Origin: a virus
Taxonomy: Duplodnaviria; Caudoviricetes
IMG/VR virus record: IMGVR_UViG_3300023314_000083
Location: 1-28,965 of that record
Length of the DNA stretch: 28,965 nt
Strand: one strand, 5' to 3'
The stretch's first letter is position 1; each line of letters starts with the position of its first letter. The position numbers and the translations under genes are program-made. Below the pieces are notes generated by a model. It was not told the origin of the DNA, made no database searches, and saw nothing but the letters and a program-made list of their open reading frames with translations. Below, in pieces: positions 1-26,376 of this stretch.

Positions 1-1317
1 TCAGGCGGCCTTACGCAGCTTGTCGAAGGCCCCGATAGTAGAGGCGTGGCGCTGCTTCTCGCGGGCCTTCGCATAGCGGCGGGTGCTTTGCAGGCTGGAG
101 TGGCCGAGCCCGTCCTGAACTTCCACTATGCTGGCGTCACCGTCCAGCAGCAGGGTGGCGAACGTGTGGCGGGCAAGGTGGCAGGTAATGAACTCATGTA
201 TTGGGCCGCGCCGGGTGTGCTGCTTGCCGCCGTAGTTTCGAACCTCGCTTATCTGCCGGTTCAGGCCCGCTACCTGGGCCGCCTCTTTGATAAGGTCGTT
301 CATTTGGGTATTGCTCTGCACCGGCAGTTCGCCGTTGTAGCGTTGCCAGATTTCGTAAGCAAGCGGGTCAAGAGCCACTTTAACTTTTGTTTTCTTGCGG
401 CCCTTGAACTGGGTGTATTCTAAGACAGGCTGGCCGCGCACCACGCGCACATCGGAGGGGCGCAGGGCGGCGAGGTTGCCGTACCGGGGGCCAGTGAAAC
501 AGTTAAACACGAAACAGTCGCGGGCACGCTCCAGCTGCAGGCGCGGCATCTCGGCCTCGGCTAGTTGTAGCACCTCCTCAAATTCGAGGGGTTCAATGTC
601 GATTTCATACGTTAGCTCATCTTTGAGCCAAGCATAGGGCAGGCCGGAAAATTGGATAATCGTGCGCAGCCGCTTTATATAGGAGCCCACGGTATTGTTG
701 TCGAGTCCGAACTCACCGGGGGCACCTCGCCGGGGCACGTCGAGCAGTAGGAAGCTAATCCACTGCTCAACCAATTCCGAGCGCCCGGTTTTGCGGTCGG
801 GCATCATTTCCTCCAACCGGACGCCGGGGCGCAGTTGCTCCCAATAGGTAACCACCGGGTTCATCAGCTTCAGGTATTTGTCGGAACGCTGGCCGCGCAT
901 CTGCTTTTGCCAATGCGCCACCACCTGAGCCAGCGTGAGCGCAGGCTCGGCCTCGGGCTCAGGCTCGGGGGTAGGCTCGGGTGGTGCTTCGTCGCGGTAC
1001 TTCAGGTAATCCCCCAGCACCTGGCGCATCTGTGCGGCCGTGACTTTTTCACCGCGAGCGGCGGCTTGGTCGATGGTAGAGCCGGCCAGCGCGTCCAGCG
1101 CCTTGATTGCATTGTTGGCCGGGCTGCCCGTCGTGCCCTGCACCCGTTGCTTTTTCCACAGGTTGGGCCGGCAGGTGTGGCCGATGCTCAGGCGCACGGC
1201 GCAGGGGTCACCCTCCACGGCCGCGTCGTGCTTTGCCCAGCGCACCTCCATATAAATGGGGCGCGTCCCGTCGCCATAGGATTTAGAATGAAGGTAGAAG
1301 CGGGTGTGGGTCTGCAT
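1..1317 (-). CDS. int: Tyrosine recombinase / phage integrase
   Basis: Catalytic motifs TGPRY (R), K, HLARH (HxxR), LGH and RRY; N-terminal arm-binding-like segment (RFYL...GTRPIYMEVRW). Start taken as ATG 1317, 2 nt after the repressor stop. Confidence 0.93.
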   Translation of the reverse strand: MQTHTRFYLHSKSYGDGTRPIYMEVRWAKHDAAVEGDPCAVRLSIGHTCRPNLWKKQRVQGTTGSPANNAIKALDALAGSTIDQAAARGEKVTAAQMRQVLGDYLKYRDEAPPEPTPEPEPEAEPALTLAQVVAHWQKQMRGQRSDKYLKLMNPVVTYWEQLRPGVRLEEMMPDRKTGRSELVEQWISFLLLDVPRRGAPGEFGLDNNTVGSYIKRLRTIIQFSGLPYAWLKDELTYEIDIEPLEFEEVLQLAEAEMPRLQLERARDCFVFNCFTGPRYGNLAALRPSDVRVVRGQPVLEYTQFKGRKKTKVKVALDPLAYEIWQRYNGELPVQSNTQMNDLIKEAAQVAGLNRQISEVRNYGGKQHTRRGPIHEFITCHLARHTFATLLLDGDASIVEVQDGLGHSSLQSTRRYAKAREKQRHASTIGAFDKLRKAA

Positions 1318-1319
1318 AA

Positions 1320-2000
1320 TTATGCGGTAATCCGTTTGCGGTAGCGCCACATCTCCTGCACCTCACTGGGCATAATAACATCCGGTTTATAAGCGGGATT
1401 ATCGCTCTCGATTATTAAATACCCTCGCTTTCCTACTGCATTGGTAACGCGCTTCAGGCAAATCCCTTCCGAGGTCACCAGTACATAAGCTTCTCCATCC
1501 ACAATATCCTCAGGGCGTTCGATGTGCTCGCATATCACTAAGTCACCCGGCTCAAATGTTGGCGACATGCTGACACCCGAAACTTCGAAGGCTCGGTAAT
1601 CGCCACCATCTAAGCCAGGAATGGAGATAGTTTCGAGCATACCGAGGTAGTCGTCATCATTTAATCGCTGACGATATCCAGCCTCTGCTTTTTGCGGGAC
1701 TAATAAAATTTGCTTGCGGCCAAAGGCATCAGCAATAACATAGCGGGTAGGCATAGAAGAAAAAGATTCTTTCCCGTTGCGTTGCCCAGTGTTAAGATAC
1801 TCAACGGTGGTGTGGTAGAGTTTGGCTAATGCCTCTAACCTAGAGGGCTTTATGTGTATAGTATCGTTTTTCTCATACTTACTAAGCTGAGAATGACTTA
1901 TTTCAGTGTCAGTGCCTTTTAGTGCATCTTCCACAGAGCGCAGCGTGTGCTCTGCTGCCAAACGGGCCTGTTGCAGCCGGTCGCCTCGCCCTTTTGTCAT
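1320..2000 (-). CDS. cI: CI-like repressor (XRE HTH plus S24 autopeptidase)
   Basis: N-terminal HTH (ISHSQLSKYEKN); C-terminal AFEVSGVSMSPT (catalytic Ser), CLKR (Lys) and ESDNPAY. Confidence 0.92.
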   Translation of the reverse strand: MTKGRGDRLQQARLAAEHTLRSVEDALKGTDTEISHSQLSKYEKNDTIHIKPSRLEALAKLYHTTVEYLNTGQRNGKESFSSMPTRYVIADAFGRKQILLVPQKAEAGYRQRLNDDDYLGMLETISIPGLDGGDYRAFEVSGVSMSPTFEPGDLVICEHIERPEDIVDGEAYVLVTSEGICLKRVTNAVGKRGYLIIESDNPAYKPDVIMPSEVQEMWRYRKRITA

Positions 2001-2073
2001 AATAGAAAACTGATTGGTACAACACAAAGGAACGCACTTTAACACATTCTAACAAACTTTGCGTCAATCATTG

Positions 2074-12507: not shown

Positions 12508-12715
12508 GAGCAGGGCGCGGGTGTTGTGCCCGCCACGCGGCTTGGTGGGGCTCCAGTTGGGCCATCGTGACCCCGTAGAGCATGAACACGTCCTCGGGCG
12601 TCAGGCCCTTGTCCAAGTCGTCCAGCGCGGCCCATGTTTTCACCTGCTGCTCCATCGCGGGCGACAGTTCAAACTCAGGAATCATGGCCTCGGTGATGTT
12701 CTCGCCAGTCTTCAT
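12500..12715 (-). CDS. Small acidic protein, candidate immunity protein for the MuF C-terminal domain
   Basis: 71 aa, ATGA-coupled to the MuF stop. Confidence 0.6.
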   Translation of the reverse strand: MKTGENITEAMIPEFELSPAMEQQVKTWAALDDLDKGLTPEDVFMLYGVTMAQLEPHQAAWRAQHPRPAHV

Positions 12716-14289
12716 TTCTTCGGTTTTTTGGGCTTGGGCGGCGCGTTCAAATATTCCTCAAAGATAGCCATTTGCTGCTCGTTTTTAAGGTCTAATTGGC
12801 CGTGCCAATCCTGCCCCAGCAACAATTTTTTACCGTGTTCGGTGCCTGCCCACTTCCAGATGGGGAAAGGTTCTTTCGGGGTGCTGGCATAGTGGGCATT
12901 GAGCTGTTTTTCGTAGAGGTCGATGGCCGCCGGGGGCACCTTGCCCAGCTTGCGGGCATTCTGAATAATTGTCCGCAGCTCCGCCGGCTGTGTGGCGGAA
13001 AAGCCCACGCGGGCCCACACGTAGCCCCCAGCGTCCAAGGCCGCATGCACCCGGATGGTTTGCACGTTCAGGGCGTGGTATTGCTTGAAAAGGGCCTTGT
13101 TCAACCGTTGCGAAAAGCCCTTGCCCTGCATGGCTTCGGGCATGTCCAGCAACTCATGCACGGCGTGGAGCTTGCCCTTCTCCTGCACGATGTAGCGTTG
13201 CAGCACCACGTCGCCGTCGTTGCGCTGGGCCGCATAATCCAGCTTCAGCACGGTGTTCTCGCCACCCTTGCCGCTCTTGATATACCAGCGGGTATCCTGC
13301 CATTTCACGCGGAACGATTTAGCTGCGGCTTCCAGGTCGGCCGCGAGCTGGGGCAGGTCGGCCCCGGCCAGCATCTGGGCGTTTTCGATGATTGCCGCGT
13401 CGGTGGGGCCACCCTTCACCGTGATGCCCAGCGCCCGCAGCTTCGCCAGCGCCGCCTCATCGAAGCGGGCCGGGGCCGCCGCTAGTGGTGGCGGGGTGGC
13501 CGTTACCTTTTTGCGGGTGTTGAGCTTCTTCGCCACCCGTTGCGGCACGTCGAAGTAGGGATGCTCAGGCCCGAAGATTTCACCGGTCCGGCCCACGTTG
13601 GCCTTGAACTCATCGGGCACCGACGGCAGCCCGAGCAGCTTGGCGTCGGGCGTTACGGCCGTGTCGTCGTCCACCTCGGTTACCGAACATCTGCATGCCC
13701 AGTCACATGGCGGCATATGCTCATCCCAAAACGGGTCGTTTTTGGGCCGCACGATACCATCGTACACCGCGTGGTCGTGGCGCACCCGGTCGTCGCCGGC
13801 CGTGTCGTAGCGCAGCAGCCCGCCCTCGCTGAAGCTCGTCCACTTGCTCGCCATCTGGGCCGAGGCCACGGCCTGGTTGTACTCGGTGCGCAGGTAGTCC
13901 ACGTTGTAGACCTGATGCACGGCCAGCGCGTCGGTGCGAAAGTCGGCAAACGGCCGAATCACGCCCTCATCGTCGTAGAGCTTGCGCGTCATCTCCTGCT
14001 GCACGGCGTAGGTTTTGAAGCCCGAAAACCGCTGCACGTTGGCCGTGAGGTAGCCGCGCAGGGTCGGGTCAGTGGCGTTCCACCCCAGCGTCACCGCTTC
14101 ATTGAGGTGCGCGGCGAAGTAGGCGGCTAGTTCCTCGTCAATCGTGCCATCATTGGGCACGAGGCCACCATGCAACCGCTGAATGAGGCGGTTGGCGAGG
14201 TGTTCCAGGTCGCCGGGGTCGGCGGCCCAGATGCGGCCTACTGCTGCGCTGGGGCCTGCCGGGTCGGGAAGGCCGGCAGGCCCGGGGTC
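12712..14289 (-). CDS. MuF minor head protein with C-terminal GNAT-like domain; probably translated by -1 frameshift from the portal gene
   Basis: YLRTEYNQA, YDTAGDDRVRHDH and FWDEHMPPCDWACRC MuF motifs; frame open from 14319 with no ATG before about 13992 (TTG 14175 is the alternative start). Confidence 0.8.
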   Translation of the reverse strand, partial: DPGPAGLPDPAGPSAAVGRIWAADPGDLEHLANRLIQRLHGGLVPNDGTIDEELAAYFAAHLNEAVTLGWNATDPTLRGYLTANVQRFSGFKTYAVQQEMTRKLYDDEGVIRPFADFRTDALAVHQVYNVDYLRTEYNQAVASAQMASKWTSFSEGGLLRYDTAGDDRVRHDHAVYDGIVRPKNDPFWDEHMPPCDWACRCSVTEVDDDTAVTPDAKLLGLPSVPDEFKANVGRTGEIFGPEHPYFDVPQRVAKKLNTRKKVTATPPPLAAAPARFDEAALAKLRALGITVKGGPTDAAIIENAQMLAGADLPQLAADLEAAAKSFRVKWQDTRWYIKSGKGGENTVLKLDYAAQRNDGDVVLQRYIVQEKGKLHAVHELLDMPEAMQGKGFSQRLNKALFKQYHALNVQTIRVHAALDAGGYVWARVGFSATQPAELRTIIQNARKLGKVPPAAIDLYEKQLNAHYASTPKEPFPIWKWAGTEHGKKLLLGQDWHGQLDLKNEQQMAIFEEYLNAPPKPKKPKK

Positions 14290-15827
14290 TTTCCCGGCCC
14301 CTCTCCTTCCTCCCCTCCCTCAGTGGGTAGGGGTAGTTGGATGAGCGTATCCAGCCCGGCCAGCTTCAGCGCCTGCGCGAGCGGCACCCCGGCCGTGGTC
14401 GCGGCCTGAAGGACCGACAGCTGCGCCTTGAGTTTCTGCTGCGCCTGCGCCTCGGTGTCGTCTTCCTCGGGGAGCAGCAGTTGGGCCCGGGCCTCGTTGC
14501 GCGATACTACGCCTTCCTCGATGTGATAGCCCAGAATAGGGCGGGCCTCAGCCGGGGCGGGGGCATCGCTGCCACCCTTCCCACCGGCACCACCGGCACC
14601 TTCAGCAGCTTTCGCCGCGGCTGCTTCGTCGGGCTCGAACTCCACGCCGAACGTCTCGGCCAGGTACTTCGCGCTGACCTTCCGGCCGCTGGTCTGCATG
14701 ATGCCCTGCACGATTTCAAACTGCGCTTTCTTGCCCAGCGTCTCGGTCTGGTCCCACTCAAACGTCACGCTCAGCAGGTCCACCGGGTAGCCGTGGCGCA
14801 CCAGGAACGGCAGCAACTGCTCGTTGATGACTTCGGCCAGGTCGTCGGCATCCTCCCGCATGTAGGAGGCCGCGACGCGCTCGTGTACCTCTGACTGGCT
14901 GCGGCTGCTACCGTTGTCGGTGGTCATGGTCTGGCCCAGCACGGCCTTGCTCACCTCGGAGTTGATGCGTTCGAGGTACTTGTCGTACACGTCGCCCGTC
15001 GAGTTGGGCGCGGTCACGAACTCCATTTTGGTGTTGGCCCCGGGGAAAATGCCGTAAGCAGCCTGCCCCATGTTCGCCATCATGGTGTTGAACTGCCCAA
15101 TCAGCCCCTCGTCAAAGTCGCCGGTCAGGGCGCGGTAGGGCATGCCGAACATCTCGACAAAATCCGCCCACGCGCCAATCACCAGATTTTTCCAGATGAT
15201 GGCCGGCGCGAGCTTCAGCAGCAGCCCTAGGTCGCGCGGCTTGCCGACCTCAATTAGCCAGGGGGAGTAGCTCGGGTCGGTGCGGTAGGCAACGCCGTTA
15301 ATCATGCCGGGCATGGTGCGCACGATGCCCGCCTCGGGAAACACGTATTGCCGGGGGATAAGGTCGCAGGTGTAAAATTCTCCATCTACCGGGGGCGCGA
15401 ATTCGATGAGGCTGTGGCCGTAATCGACCTTTTCCAGCACGAACCGGCAGAACTCCCGAAACCACGGCCGCCGCAGCAGCTTGGTGAGCTTGGGGTTCTC
15501 CTTGCCATCCTTGCCCACCAGCCGGTACGACTGGCTGGTGACGTTGATTTTTCGGGTAGCCAGTACGCTCGTCAGGTGCAAGTCAAGCACCGTATCAGCG
15601 TAGATATTCAGCAGTTGGGTGCGCTCGGGATAGTACACCTGTTCCGCTCGGGCGAGGGCCTCCCGCCACTTGCCCACGTCCTGCCGGAGACGTTGCACCT
15701 GCACCGGGTACACGGTTTCCATGATGGAGCCCTTGGGCGCGCCCAGGCCCACCGGCCCGGCAGTGCCTTCATTGTTCCGGAAGGGGTTCAGGGCCACCCC
15801 CAGCGTGTTCGTGGTTGCGTACTGCAT
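14238..15827 (-). CDS. Portal protein (DUF935, Mu gp29-like)
   Basis: W..FVEMFGMPYR, INSEVSKAVLGQTMTTDNGSSRSQSEVHERV, INEQLLP. Confidence 0.9.
   Translation of the reverse strand: MQYATTNTLGVALNPFRNNEGTAGPVGLGAPKGSIMETVYPVQVQRLRQDVGKWREALARAEQVYYPERTQLLNIYADTVLDLHLTSVLATRKINVTSQSYRLVGKDGKENPKLTKLLRRPWFREFCRFVLEKVDYGHSLIEFAPPVDGEFYTCDLIPRQYVFPEAGIVRTMPGMINGVAYRTDPSYSPWLIEVGKPRDLGLLLKLAPAIIWKNLVIGAWADFVEMFGMPYRALTGDFDEGLIGQFNTMMANMGQAAYGIFPGANTKMEFVTAPNSTGDVYDKYLERINSEVSKAVLGQTMTTDNGSSRSQSEVHERVAASYMREDADDLAEVINEQLLPFLVRHGYPVDLLSVTFEWDQTETLGKKAQFEIVQGIMQTSGRKVSAKYLAETFGVEFEPDEAAAAKAAEGAGGAGGKGGSDAPAPAEARPILGYHIEEGVVSRNEARAQLLLPEEDDTEAQAQQKLKAQLSVLQAATTAGVPLAQALKLAGLDTLIQLPLPTEGGEEGEGPGKTPGLPAFPTRQAPAQQ
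14252..14295 (-). other. Programmed -1 ribosomal frameshift signal (portal to MuF)
   Basis: G_GGA_AAG at 14295-14289 phased in the portal frame; spacer ACCCC; stem GGGCCTGCCGG/CCGGCAGGCCC with a 10-nt loop. Confidence 0.75.
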
Positions 15828-18433: not shown

Positions 18434-18528
18434 GTGAGTAATAGTGAATAGATTTCCACAACTACGGGGTAAAAATTCCACAATTACTCACTTGAAAAAG
18501 TACCGGATTTGCAGCGGCTCTAAGTTTG
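18434..18528. promoter_or_regulatory. Divergent late-gene control region
   Basis: Imperfect inverted repeat 18434-18449 / 18475-18491; direct repeats TTCCACAAyTAC at 18454 and 18476; TAAGTTTG -7 element at 18521-18528. Confidence 0.55.
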
Positions 18529-18555
18529 GGTATTGCTTTTCACGCGCTGCTGCAT

Positions 18556-19638
18556 ATGGCTACCCCAACCCTTCAGATTTATTCCGCTATCGGCTTCAAC
18601 CCGGCCACCGGGGCAGGGCTCAGCGCGGCTGAGTTTGGCGCGAGGCTGGCCGAGGCTGAGGCAACGGGCGAGAAGCGGGTGGCCGTGCGCATCAACAGCG
18701 GCGGCGGCGACTGGCAGGAAGGCCAGACCATGTACGACCTGCTCAAAGCCAGCTCGCTCAAGGTCGATACCTATTGTGTCGGGCTGGTGGCCTCGGCTGC
18801 TACCCTGCCCTTCATGGCGGGCAACAAGCGGCTGATTTCGGCCCACGCCAAGCTCATGATTCACAACTGCGCCAGCGGCGCGGCGGGCGGTATTGCCGAC
18901 CTAGAAAACGCTATCAATCAGCAGAAGGCCGTCAACGCCAGCATGGCCCAGCTGTATGCGACGGCCTCGGGCCAGACCGTGGAGAAGTGCGCCGAACTGA
19001 TGGCCGCCACCACTTACATGGATGCTGAAACGGCCGTGGCCCTGGGCTTCGCCACCGGCATCGTGGACGACGACAAAAAAGCCCTGGCCCCGCCGTCCGA
19101 CATGCCCACCGCCGAGCTGGCGGGCTACTACGCTGCATTGCTTCCCCAACCCACGAATATGAAAAACCTACTCCTTCCCATCATGGCAGCCGCTGGGCTG
19201 TCCACCATTACCGCCGCCTCGCCCGACGCTGACGTGGCCTTGGCTGTATCGGCCGCCTTCACTGAGCGCGACAAGTTCAAAAAGGACGCGGAGGATGCCC
19301 GCGCCGCCGTGGCTGAAGCCACCACCAAACTCACCGAGGCCGAGGCCAAGCTGAAGGACTTCGAGGACCAGGCCACCGCCAACGCTGCCACGGCCGCCGC
19401 CAACGCGGTAACTGCCCTGGTTGATGGTGCTGTCACTTCCGGCCGCATCACGGCCAGCATGAAGGACACCTATACCAAGCTCGCCACAGCCGACCTCGCC
19501 AGCACCACGGCCCTTATCGCTGCCCTGCCGGCTCACAAGTCGCTGCTGCATGTGGTCGAGGCTGACCTGGGCAACGCGGGCGTTCACACCGCTGGCGGGG
19601 CCATGCTCGAAATCAAGGCGAAGCTGGCCGGCCAATAG
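18556..19638 (+). CDS. ClpP-type prohead protease with C-terminal scaffold
   Basis: RINSGGG, GLVASAAT, LMIHN, TYMDAETAVALGF; Ala-rich coiled-coil C-terminal half. Confidence 0.9.
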   Translation: MATPTLQIYSAIGFNPATGAGLSAAEFGARLAEAEATGEKRVAVRINSGGGDWQEGQTMYDLLKASSLKVDTYCVGLVASAATLPFMAGNKRLISAHAKLMIHNCASGAAGGIADLENAINQQKAVNASMAQLYATASGQTVEKCAELMAATTYMDAETAVALGFATGIVDDDKKALAPPSDMPTAELAGYYAALLPQPTNMKNLLLPIMAAAGLSTITAASPDADVALAVSAAFTERDKFKKDAEDARAAVAEATTKLTEAEAKLKDFEDQATANAATAAANAVTALVDGAVTSGRITASMKDTYTKLATADLASTTALIAALPAHKSLLHVVEADLGNAGVHTAGGAMLEIKAKLAGQ

Positions 19639-24723: not shown

Positions 24724-26376
24724 ATGGCTACTGTTCTTCCGTTTAAGCTCACTCTTGAGGATATGCTGGGCCCGAAAGTGGCTGGTGCTATCCGACAAGT
24801 GCAGAACCTGGGCTCCGAGGTGGCAAAGCCGCACAAGCTCAACGTCGATGCCAGCGGGGCCAAGGGTGCCCTGTCGGGTGTTATGGGCATGCTGGGCGGG
24901 CTGGGCATCGCGGCCGGTATTGCTGCCGGGGCGAAGGCCATTGTGGGCATGGGCGTAGGGCTTGAACAAACTCGTGTCCAGTTCGAAACCTTCACCGGCT
25001 CGGCCGAAAAGGGGAACGCTGTTATTGCCGACCTGCAGAAGTTTGCCAACCTGACCCCGTTCGAGGACGACCAAGTAATCAGCGCCGGCCGGCAGCTACT
25101 GGCGTTCGGCGAGGATGCTAAAAACCTGAATCCTATCCTGACCAAGCTCGGCAACATCAGCTCAGCCACCGGCAAGGATTTCAACGAGCTAGTGAGCATC
25201 TACGGCAAGAACAAGCTCAGCGGCGTTATTCAGGGCGAAGACCTCAACCAGCTCACCGAGTCGGGCATTCCCGTGATGGATTCGCTGGCCCGGCAGTTGG
25301 GCGTCACCACCGACCAAGTGAAGAAGATGGGTGCTGACGGGAAAATCAGCTTCAAGATGCTGGAGAAGTCCTTCGATGAGTTGGGCGGCGCGGGCGGCAA
25401 GTGGGGCGACTTGATGGACAAGCAGAGCAAAACCGTAGCGGGCCGGTGGTCGTCGCTGGTGGGCTTCGCGCAGAACCTGGGCGGCAAGGCGGGCGAGGCG
25501 CTGCTGCCCATCATGGGCGGCATCGTGGACGGCGGCAACGAGTTGTTGGCCTTCATCCAGACGAACACGGCCAAACTGAAGCAGATGTTTGACCCGGTGG
25601 TGAAGGCCGTGCAGCCGCTGGTCGATGAATTCCGCAACATCAAAAACGAGATTTTCGGCACGAGCGAGGCAGGCGACATTCTGAACACCGTGTTCAACGT
25701 CATCGCCACCGTCATTAAATACATTTCGCCAGTTATCAAGGTAGTGGCTACGCTGCTGGCGGAGGTGTACAAGCAGATTTTCCGCGTGGTGCAGGTGATT
25801 GGGCACTGGCTCGCCACCAGCCCCCGGGTGCAGAAGTTCCTTTCAGGGCTCTGGGAGGGTGCCGTGGCGACCTTCAAGGGCATTGCCGAGGCGGCCGGCA
25901 AGTTTCTGGGCGGCGTGGGTGGCATCATTGAGGGCGTGTTCACGGGCGACTTTGGCAAAATCAAGGAAGGGCTACTGCAGACGATGAACGCCGTCGGTGA
26001 TACTCAATTTGACAAGCTGGGCAAGAAAGCGGCCGATGGCTTTAACCAAGGCTACCGCGATGGCTTCCAGCCCATGAAGCTGTTCGGCGCTGATAAGGTA
26101 GCGGGCACTGACGCCGCCAGCACCTTCATGGGTGGCGGCGGCAAGCCCGGCGGCGCGAAGGCCCCCGCGATGACGGCTGCTGCCAGCAAGGGTGAAAGCG
26201 TGAGCGGCGTGGGCGGGAAGGGTATCACTAACATTCACCTGACCACGGGCAACATCTTCCCCAATGCCACTATCACGGCCGGCACCACGCAGGAGGCGGC
26301 CCGCGATGTATCGGGCCAATTCGGGGACTGGATTCGGGCCGCTCTCAACGACGTGAACACCTTAGCCTCGACCTAA
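24724..26376 (+). CDS. Tape measure protein
   Basis: FETFTGSAEKG...TPF...GEDLNQL...GIPV tape-measure domain; Gly/Ala-rich amphipathic repeats. Confidence 0.9.
   Translation: MATVLPFKLTLEDMLGPKVAGAIRQVQNLGSEVAKPHKLNVDASGAKGALSGVMGMLGGLGIAAGIAAGAKAIVGMGVGLEQTRVQFETFTGSAEKGNAVIADLQKFANLTPFEDDQVISAGRQLLAFGEDAKNLNPILTKLGNISSATGKDFNELVSIYGKNKLSGVIQGEDLNQLTESGIPVMDSLARQLGVTTDQVKKMGADGKISFKMLEKSFDELGGAGGKWGDLMDKQSKTVAGRWSSLVGFAQNLGGKAGEALLPIMGGIVDGGNELLAFIQTNTAKLKQMFDPVVKAVQPLVDEFRNIKNEIFGTSEAGDILNTVFNVIATVIKYISPVIKVVATLLAEVYKQIFRVVQVIGHWLATSPRVQKFLSGLWEGAVATFKGIAEAAGKFLGGVGGIIEGVFTGDFGKIKEGLLQTMNAVGDTQFDKLGKKAADGFNQGYRDGFQPMKLFGADKVAGTDAASTFMGGGGKPGGAKAPAMTAAASKGESVSGVGGKGITNIHLTTGNIFPNATITAGTTQEAARDVSGQFGDWIRAALNDVNTLAST

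Follow-up and report, generated by a model that had tools for sequence, protein, structure and literature searches.

The -1 frameshift of the lambda G/GT type, in the genes for the tail assembly chaperones, was reportedly described by Levin, Hendrix and Casjens in 1993 and by Xu, Hendrix and Duda in 2004, and we take GGGAAAG to be the slippery site of lambda G/GT. The tau/gamma frameshift of dnaX combines a heptamer of the form X_XXA_AAG with a stem-loop and an upstream Shine-Dalgarno (SD)-like stimulator, and orfAB of IS3/IS911 uses an A-rich heptamer of the X_XXA_AAG type. Here we describe a putative site of programmed -1 ribosomal frameshifting (PRF) at the junction of the genes for the Mu-type portal protein and the MuF protein in a metagenome-derived provirus record of IMG/VR (IMGVR_UViG_3300023314_000083, 28,965 bases; this whole analyzed stretch is referred to as the window). 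A conserved -1 PRF cassette at this junction very probably sends some ribosomes into the MuF frame, which would yield a portal-MuF protein of 1038 amino acids (aa) beside the 529-aa portal protein.

Portal and MuF have been described as parts of a single polypeptide in other phages. In the parts of the articles covered, in-frame portal-MuF fusions are described in Microbacterium phage clusters EA3, EA5, EA8 and EB (PMC7302621), and portal-MuF-PBECR architectures in PMC5512222; phrog_35074 is the PHROG instance of an in-frame portal-MuF fusion. The MuF protein of SPP1, gp7, binds the portal in one or two copies, according to the covered part of PMC5576092. The G/GT studies (Levin 1993; Xu 2004) are cited in the covered portions of PMC7302621 and PMC2628397. 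A frameshift at the portal/MuF junction is undescribed in those portions of PMC7302621, PMC7911831, PMC5576092, PMC2628397, PMC12664050, PMC5512222 and PMC3556154 that were covered, and recoding at this junction was not found described in the literature searched, with subscription journals and bioRxiv supplements lying outside the search. This agrees with an earlier reading of the window made without database searches (the sequence-only reading), which proposed the frameshift and knew of no characterized one at this junction.

The portal open reading frame (ORF; 14238-15827, minus strand), taken as the zero frame, encodes a 529-aa Mu-type portal protein (Portal_Mu, PF06074, E = 6.6e-71; phrog_113, portal), in which residues 74-395 match the domain model over its full length (positions 2-336 of 336). 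On the minus strand, the 3' end of the gene reads ...GAG GGG CCG GGA AAG ACC CCG GGC CTG ... CAG CAG TAG. Because the portal frame is read as CCG GGA AAG ACC, the heptamer G_GGA_AAG (14289-14295) lies in X_XXY_YYZ phase, its codons CCG GGA AAG specifying P-G-K, with the lysine at position 513. A spacer of 5 nucleotides (nt), ACCCC (14284-14288), separates the heptamer from a stem-loop with a perfect 11-bp stem and a 10-nt loop (14252-14283), in which GGGCCTGCCGG (14283-14273) pairs with CCGGCAGGCCC (14262-14252). The portal stop codon TAG (14238-14240) comes 16 codons past the heptamer, and a TGA that opens the -1 frame lies 24 nt 5' of it (14320-14322). Thus, the in-phase heptamer, the open -1 frame and a structure at a distance of 5-9 nt that characterize canonical -1 PRF are all found here, and the heptamer, spacer and hairpin proposed in the sequence-only reading are each present as it described them. 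The purine-rich GGAGGAAGGAG just upstream, which the same reading considered as a possible SD-like stimulator, fared differently and was rejected for lack of conservation: at none of the 12 other loci compared, all with GGGAAAG at the portal linker, is GGAGGAAGGAG found upstream of the heptamer, the 21 nt there being different from those of the window. Rfam gave no match at E <= 1 within 14100-14450, and neither a sigma-70-like promoter nor a T-run terminator was found in 13900-14600, so that the hairpin is one without a T-run. A second in-phase heptamer, C_CCG_GGC (14280-14286, minus strand), which shares bases with both the spacer and the stem's 5' arm, was dropped as a candidate, being absent from the closest related locus (L002, see below).

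The -1 frame, which begins after the TGA at 14322-14320 and reads GRGGRRGAGKDPGPAGLPDPAGPSAAVGRIWAADPGDLEHLANRLIQRLHGG..., is open from 14319 to 12715 (535 codons) and ends with the stop at 12712-12714; it is the frame of MuF, as the sequence-only reading had it. The predicted trans-frame continuation, counted from GAC 14289 (12712-14289, minus strand), has 525 aa, comprises a linker, the MuF domain and a C-terminal domain, and is homologous over its length to separate as well as fused MuF proteins. Its Phage_Mu_F core (PF04233; 13681-13896, minus strand; residues 142-213 of the 535-aa stop-to-stop read) was detected with E = 4.7e-11 and a score of 43.9 bits against a gathering cut-off of 29.6, along with matches to phrog_19194, phrog_220 and others, and the gene lies directly 3' of the portal gene. 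The predicted portal-MuF fusion consists of 513 + 525 = 1038 aa, in agreement with the length of about 1038 aa proposed before. The absence of ATG over about 100 codons of this frame was likewise borne out, the first ATG being codon 110; among the alternative start codons, TTG first appears at 14175 and GTG at 14160.

The position of these potential starts is of consequence, as the N-terminal part of MuF contains a helix, DLEHLANRLIQRLHGG (14164-14211, minus strand), with the pattern L..L..RLI...H.G conserved in both fused and split relatives. The helix aligns with KLNKLAERLIKAIHSG and similar stretches of fused proteins, and also with the N-termini of the MuF relatives P0005, P0006 and P0011, whose own start sits just upstream. 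The window has no ATG, GTG or TTG ahead of the helix; the helix part DLEHLANRLIQ (14211-14179) lies 5' of TTG 14175 and GTG 14160, which fall inside or after the helix, so that initiation at either codon would lose this conserved element. The peptide encoded in the -1 frame of the window between the heptamer and the first start codon is DPGPAGLPDPAGPSAAVGR.

Judged from the sequences compared, the evidential weight for the proposed cassette is in the conservation of the heptamer, spacer and stem among relatives. A protein search with the stop-to-stop MuF read yielded 35 relatives, many of which are single proteins of 680-850 aa containing both PF06074 and PF04233 (for example, P0009, P0010 and P0012-P0021, among others). 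Covalent portal-MuF thus exists in this lineage, and natural in-frame fusions, one of the checks suggested in the sequence-only reading, do occur. The nearest relatives of both portal and MuF belong to Hymenobacter, a genus of Bacteroidota, the closest being Hymenobacter negativus (isolate genome, locus L002), whose MuF is about 70% identical. The L002 junction reads CCG CCG GGA AAG CCCCA GGGCCTGCCGG...TCGGCAGGCCC, with the heptamer, the 5-nt spacer and the stem as in the window, except for one inner G-U pair. Its portal stops 22 codons past the heptamer, its MuF lies in a -1 frame that is open from upstream and has no start before the helix, and the annotated MuF ATG sits within the conserved helix (LADRLMAMLHSG). 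The in-phase GGGAAAG at the portal linker is present in 14 of 14 Hymenobacter-type junctions with the P-G-K motif, namely six split loci (the window, L002, L005, L010, L089 and L090) and eight loci fused in frame (L003, L004, L006, L007, L008, L085, L086 and L087). Alignment of related junctions, another of the checks suggested, thus finds the heptamer, spacer, hairpin and -1 frame relation retained. In another Hymenobacter-type locus, L084 (58% portal identity), A_AAA_AAG takes the place of this heptamer, immediately preceding TAG, with a 10-bp stem (GGCTCACAGG/CCTGTGAGCC) beyond it and a GTG located 14 nt past the portal stop.

Two wirings of the junction were identified. Split forms have a zero frame that terminates 0-22 codons past the heptamer (directly 3' of it in L010 and L090) and a -1 frame that runs on into MuF. 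The -1 frame of L010, L089 and L090 encodes an ALYARAC segment that the fused relatives carry in the zero frame, and because the fused relatives encode the same segment, this stretch is coding in the three split loci despite the lack of a start codon. In the fused forms, the zero frame encodes portal-MuF, and it is the -1 frame that ends, after 17-34 codons in L003, L004, L006, L007 and L087 and after a single codon in L008, L085, L086, L013 and L016. The fused genes with the stop one codon past the slip have an 11-12-bp stem at 5 nt (L008 2904-2952, L085 3979-4027, L086 4000-4047, L013 3033-3076 and L016 3000-3043). Judging from this arrangement, a slip in the fused genes would give a portal without MuF, a dnaX-like layout, and both wirings would yield the same two products, plain portal and portal-MuF; which of the two is minor depends on slip efficiency. 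Another feature of the fused relatives is a segment, roughly 35 aa long and marked by a Cys motif resembling ALYAxxCxxC, that lies between PGK and the MuF helix; it is missing from the window, L002 and L005 and is encoded in the -1 frame in L010, L089 and L090.

The survey of portal-MuF junctions across Bacteroidota included 80 genome loci, 81 viral-contig loci and the window, the window's own copies (L001 and L083) having been dropped; scans with the portal alone gave one distant locus among viral contigs and, among metagenome contigs, only the window's own contig (L083). By tblastn, portal is followed by MuF on one strand in 146 of the 162 loci. The 132 non-identical junctions comprise 87 that are split with MuF in the -1 frame, 26 that are split otherwise and 19 fused ones. 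For each junction, we recorded the presence of an in-phase heptamer among the 75 nt that end the portal gene and of an ATG, GTG or TTG within 8 nt of the portal stop (an adjacent start). The 113 split junctions fall into 64 that possess a heptamer but lack an adjacent start, 39 of the opposite kind, 6 that possess both features and 4 that possess neither (Fisher p = 2e-19). When only junctions with MuF in the -1 frame and without an adjacent start are considered, which also number 64, an in-phase heptamer is found in 63, where 0.13 per 75 nt would be expected from portal bodies. The heptamer nearest the stop is TTTTTTC in 49 cases, AAAAAAA in 6, GGGAAAG in 4, TTTTTTT and AAATTTT in 2 each and AAAAAAG in 1. 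It is slipperiness, not the peptide, that is conserved, with the type of heptamer varying by lineage. Taken together, the swaps of heptamers between lineages and the start codon as an alternative elsewhere form the pattern that a functional slip site predicts. In 32 of the 63 loci, the 50 nt past the heptamer rank among the top 5% of local windows in folding (median fraction 0.048, mean z -1.69; the fraction of 0.224 for the window in this survey was taken at C_CCG_GGC, not at the GGGAAAG site), and loci with long A runs mostly lack a hairpin. The isolated Bacteroides phage BKO1-TP4 (PQ571270.1; L164 3763-3811) has an in-phase T_TTT_TTC before the portal stop, a GCCCCG/CGGGGC hairpin 6 nt past the heptamer and a -1 frame open into MuF; the pair is annotated as two coding sequences, with the MuF ATG overlapping the portal stop.

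These data bear on the strongest alternative, namely, that all MuF comes from independent initiation, whether at TTG 14175, at GTG 14160 or at a rare start such as ATC 14232, and that the heptamer and hairpin have some other role, such as in mRNA stability or translational coupling. The gene caller that produced P0002 picked GTG 14160, L005 and L084 have a GTG near the portal stop besides the heptamer, and the separate MuF ATG annotated in the isolated Bacteroides phage points the same way. We nevertheless regard this explanation as improbable: it would drop the conserved L..L..RLI helix if initiation were at 14175 or 14160, there is no ATG for 110 codons, adjacent starts and heptamers are nearly mutually exclusive among the split junctions, and it leaves unexplained the use of a rare GGA codon at the site, as detailed next. 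The hairpin, moreover, has no T-run.

The P-G-K motif encoded by GGGAAAG is also kept in the fused proteins, and a constraint on the peptide alone could therefore be suspected. GGA, however, accounts for only 14 of 497 Gly codons (2.8%) in the same genes (counted in the portal and MuF bodies of 13 loci; L005, which lacks a portal body, was left uncounted), yet every one of the 14 sites has it, in each case after CCG, which argues that the constraint acts on nucleotides and not only on P-G-K. The stem begins exactly 5 nt past the heptamer in nine loci with four unrelated stem sequences: GGGCCUGCCGG in the window, L002 and L005, GGGCUCACCGG in L008 and L085, GGGCCCCGCUGC in L086, and GGCGCGG(GCG) in L010, L089 and L090. 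Across these nine loci, the fraction of local windows that fold as well is 0.000-0.085; in the window, this holds for only 1.7% of 412 local 50-nt windows compared with the 50 nt past the heptamer. Covariation was assessed in 8 aligned sequences, including two loci with A_AAT_TTT (L013 and L016) where an 11-bp stem lies equally far from the heptamer: 97.7% of cells are paired and 7 of 11 pairs are changed on both sides, none of 500 shuffles reaches the observed values, and slid controls pair at 34-50%, which provides good but not overwhelming support because the structure was read off the same sequences and these represent only about five stem types. A second alternative holds that the P-G-K peptide and the linker are the conserved entity, for example as a protease site, and that the slippery sequence and the stem are by-products of GC-rich coding. 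Retention of PGK in all fused relatives aligned is compatible with this, as is the fact that both frames of the region give Pro/Gly/Ala-rich peptides, but we consider it quite unlikely given that all 14 sites read CCG GGA AAG despite the rarity of GGA, that other lineages use TTTTTTC, AAAAAAG or AAATTTT at the same place and so encode other residues, and that the stem arms covary while the loops drift.

Among the sequencing runs found to contain the stretch, there was no RNA run. The likely source run matches the window sequence, and contigs from three other samples, which cover parts of 14137-14486, show no listed difference or indel within 14225-14301, with many substitutions at 14167-14222 and 14302-14355 and an in-frame 6-nt insertion behind 14224. 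This examination, which addresses the possibility of an assembly indel raised in the sequence-only reading, is weak but consistent, with contigs rather than reads being compared at depths of 2-3.4. It would be surprising if the split were damage, that is, a recently broken fusion gene or an assembly indel, with MuF made poorly or not at all. In-frame fused relatives do exist, the window lacks the Cys-containing segment of about 35 aa found in the fused forms, and it comes from a metagenome-derived provirus; but the same split layout is seen in an isolate genome (L002) and in L005, L010, L089 and L090, both ORFs are intact and conserved, the contigs from other samples have no indel at the site, and 63 junctions share the -1 relation together with a heptamer. 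The least probable explanation, a frame change by slippage of RNA polymerase, which would add a base to the mRNA, can draw on relatives that have runs of at least nine A at the site and no hairpin, long A runs being known substrates for transcriptional slippage, but is hardly credible for GGGAAAG, whose runs are only three bases long, or in view of the codon phase and the hairpin 5 nt downstream, which are features of ribosomal shifts. The GGGAAAG form, being too short for polymerase slippage, argues that the mechanism is ribosomal family-wide.

Apart from the narrow base of the covariation analysis, several observations weigh against ribosomal frameshifting at this junction or complicate it. 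Taken alone, the window hairpin, with a minimum free energy of -36.6 kcal/mol for 71 nt, is modest compared with shuffled sequences (z = -1.66; 10 of 200 dinucleotide shuffles fold as well) and only moderately unusual for GC-rich DNA. Five fused loci (L003, L004, L006, L007 and L087) keep the heptamer without a convincing hairpin (fractions 0.046-0.415). TTG 14175 and GTG 14160 could still yield a free MuF, minus the conserved element, and the 6 split junctions with both a heptamer and an adjacent start, as well as the 4 with neither, depart from the pattern of mutual exclusion. The surveyed loci are mutually related, so the counts overstate their independence. Furthermore, the two wirings would give opposite product ratios unless the efficiency is about one half or differs between them. 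Finally, the tRNA set considered below is that of H. negativus and may not be that of the host of the window.

In the genome of H. negativus (G001, the source of L002), where all 43 tRNA hits from Rfam were examined, tRNA-Lys(UUU) is the sole Lys tRNA, with no tRNA-Lys(CUU), and tRNA-Gly(UCC), the reader of GGA, is present. A sole tRNA-Lys(UUU) makes X_XXA_AAG very shift-prone in E. coli. More broadly, H. negativus (L165-L202) has single U-wobble tRNAs for Lys, Glu and Gln, with no CUU, CUC or CUG species among the 43 hits.

Under the proposed frameshift mechanism, the hairpin would stall the ribosome at the heptamer while GGA is occupied by tRNA-Gly (P site) and AAG by tRNA-Lys (A site). Slipping back by one base would let the two tRNAs pair anew with GGG and AAA, so that GAC 14289 would be the first codon read after the slip. 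A small number of MuF copies, including the GNAT-like C-terminal domain, would thereby be attached to the capsid-interior end of the portal ring, which would guarantee the packaging of MuF at the portal vertex, and the protein might later be released by proteolysis from the Pro/Gly/Ala-rich linker. More generally, and with less assurance, we think it likely that the portal-MuF junction of Bacteroidota phages is an old conserved recoding switch, a counterpart of G/GT, in which one site, wired both ways, sets the ratio of portal to portal-MuF with its cargo enzyme and so doses ejected effectors onto the portal vertex. If so, this would be a second widely conserved frameshift in the virion genes of tailed phages beside G/GT, affecting two genes whose products are routinely annotated as separate proteins. 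It would explain the fixed small numbers of MuF at the portal and the entry of MuF-borne enzymes or toxins into the capsid, and would call for a correction of annotation, many MuF genes of Bacteroidota prophages being called from internal starts that lose the conserved helix. The opposite wirings would then serve as a natural experiment in the control of the product ratio.

The C-terminal domain of MuF (245 aa; 12715-13449, minus strand) is predicted to adopt a GNAT-like acetyl-CoA-binding fold and is a candidate effector. These 245 residues gave no Pfam or PHROG match. An AlphaFold model built from 6 sequences is confident, with a predicted local distance difference test score (pLDDT) of 86.8, and its best Foldseek matches in the PDB are of the GNAT type (the C-terminal domain of M. 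tuberculosis ICL2, Rv1916, KKT23, AAC(3) and Nat enzymes), with E values from 3e-4 to 1e-2 and template modeling (TM) scores of only 0.24-0.32 on the query; the protein atlas leads to a cluster with PF00583 in 20% of its members. Because of the low TM scores, the GNAT-like label stays a lead. For what the sequence-only reading called the effector domain, this amounts to no more than a predicted GNAT-like fold whose structural matches are weak and which falls into no Pfam or PHROG family. In the relatives P0007, P0008 and P0011, the N-terminal 40% is 58-70% identical, and a different C-terminus has a HESGHW/HEHGH motif (HExxH-type); other MuF C-termini are PBECR2 in P0025, CdiA_C in P0028 and LPD3 in P0032. 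Such a conserved MuF N-terminus with a swapped C-terminus fits the MuF polymorphic toxin pattern, as given in the covered part of PMC5576092.

The Mu-like head module of the window, on the minus strand, comprises TerL, a Mu gp36-like protein, portal, MuF and a protein of the Phage_tail_S virion morphogenesis family. The left end (1-2045, minus strand) encodes a tyrosine integrase together with an S24/helix-turn-helix repressor. A Clp-type protease (18526-19635, plus strand), divergent from the terminase-portal-MuF operon, is a candidate for cutting the portal-MuF linker. The plus-strand genes also include those for the tape measure (24724-26373) and a DUF2586 protein. A separate GNAT acetyltransferase ORF (PF13508/PF00583; 10345-10962) is encoded downstream of the head genes but on the plus strand, opposite to theirs, and falls in the kilobase with the lowest GC content of the window (0.45 versus about 0.6).

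Among the known systems, lambda G/GT has in common with the window the heptamer G_GGA_AAG, a -1 shift close to the 3' end of a structural gene, by which a downstream ORF without its own start is added, and conservation of the position across diverged phages while the slippery sequence varies. Unlike G/GT, a tail chaperone pair upstream of the tape measure, the genes here are the head genes Portal_Mu and Phage_Mu_F, a strong downstream hairpin is conserved, and some relatives use the truncating, reverse wiring. E. coli dnaX shares the X_XXA_AAG heptamer, the stem-loop about 5-6 nt downstream and a host with tRNA-Lys(UUU) only (here H. negativus), and the fused L008, L085 and L086 hit a stop one codon past the slip, as in gamma; but dnaX has an upstream SD-like stimulator, whereas no purine run is conserved 10-14 nt upstream of the heptamer here, and the shift in the window lengthens the product. 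In orfAB of IS3/IS911, an X_XXA_AAG-type heptamer with a downstream structure likewise fuses overlapping ORFs, the second of which lacks an efficient start, although the product is a transposase rather than a virion protein and an SD stimulator is often present upstream. The in-frame fusion genes carry the same order of portal, MuF and an optional enzyme domain in one polypeptide but are described as single ORFs; in the parts of the articles covered, the word 'frameshift' occurs 0 times in PMC5512222 and frameshifting concerns only tail chaperones in PMC7302621. In the MuF polymorphic toxins (Jamet et al. 2017, PMC5576092), MuF is also directly 3' of portal, with a conserved N-terminus and swapped C-termini, whereas the covered part of that article makes no mention of frameshifting, and the C-terminal domain in the window is a predicted GNAT-like one. 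The portal-MuF junction is a new gene context for a known mechanism, and its unusual feature is the presence of one site in both extending and truncating wirings.

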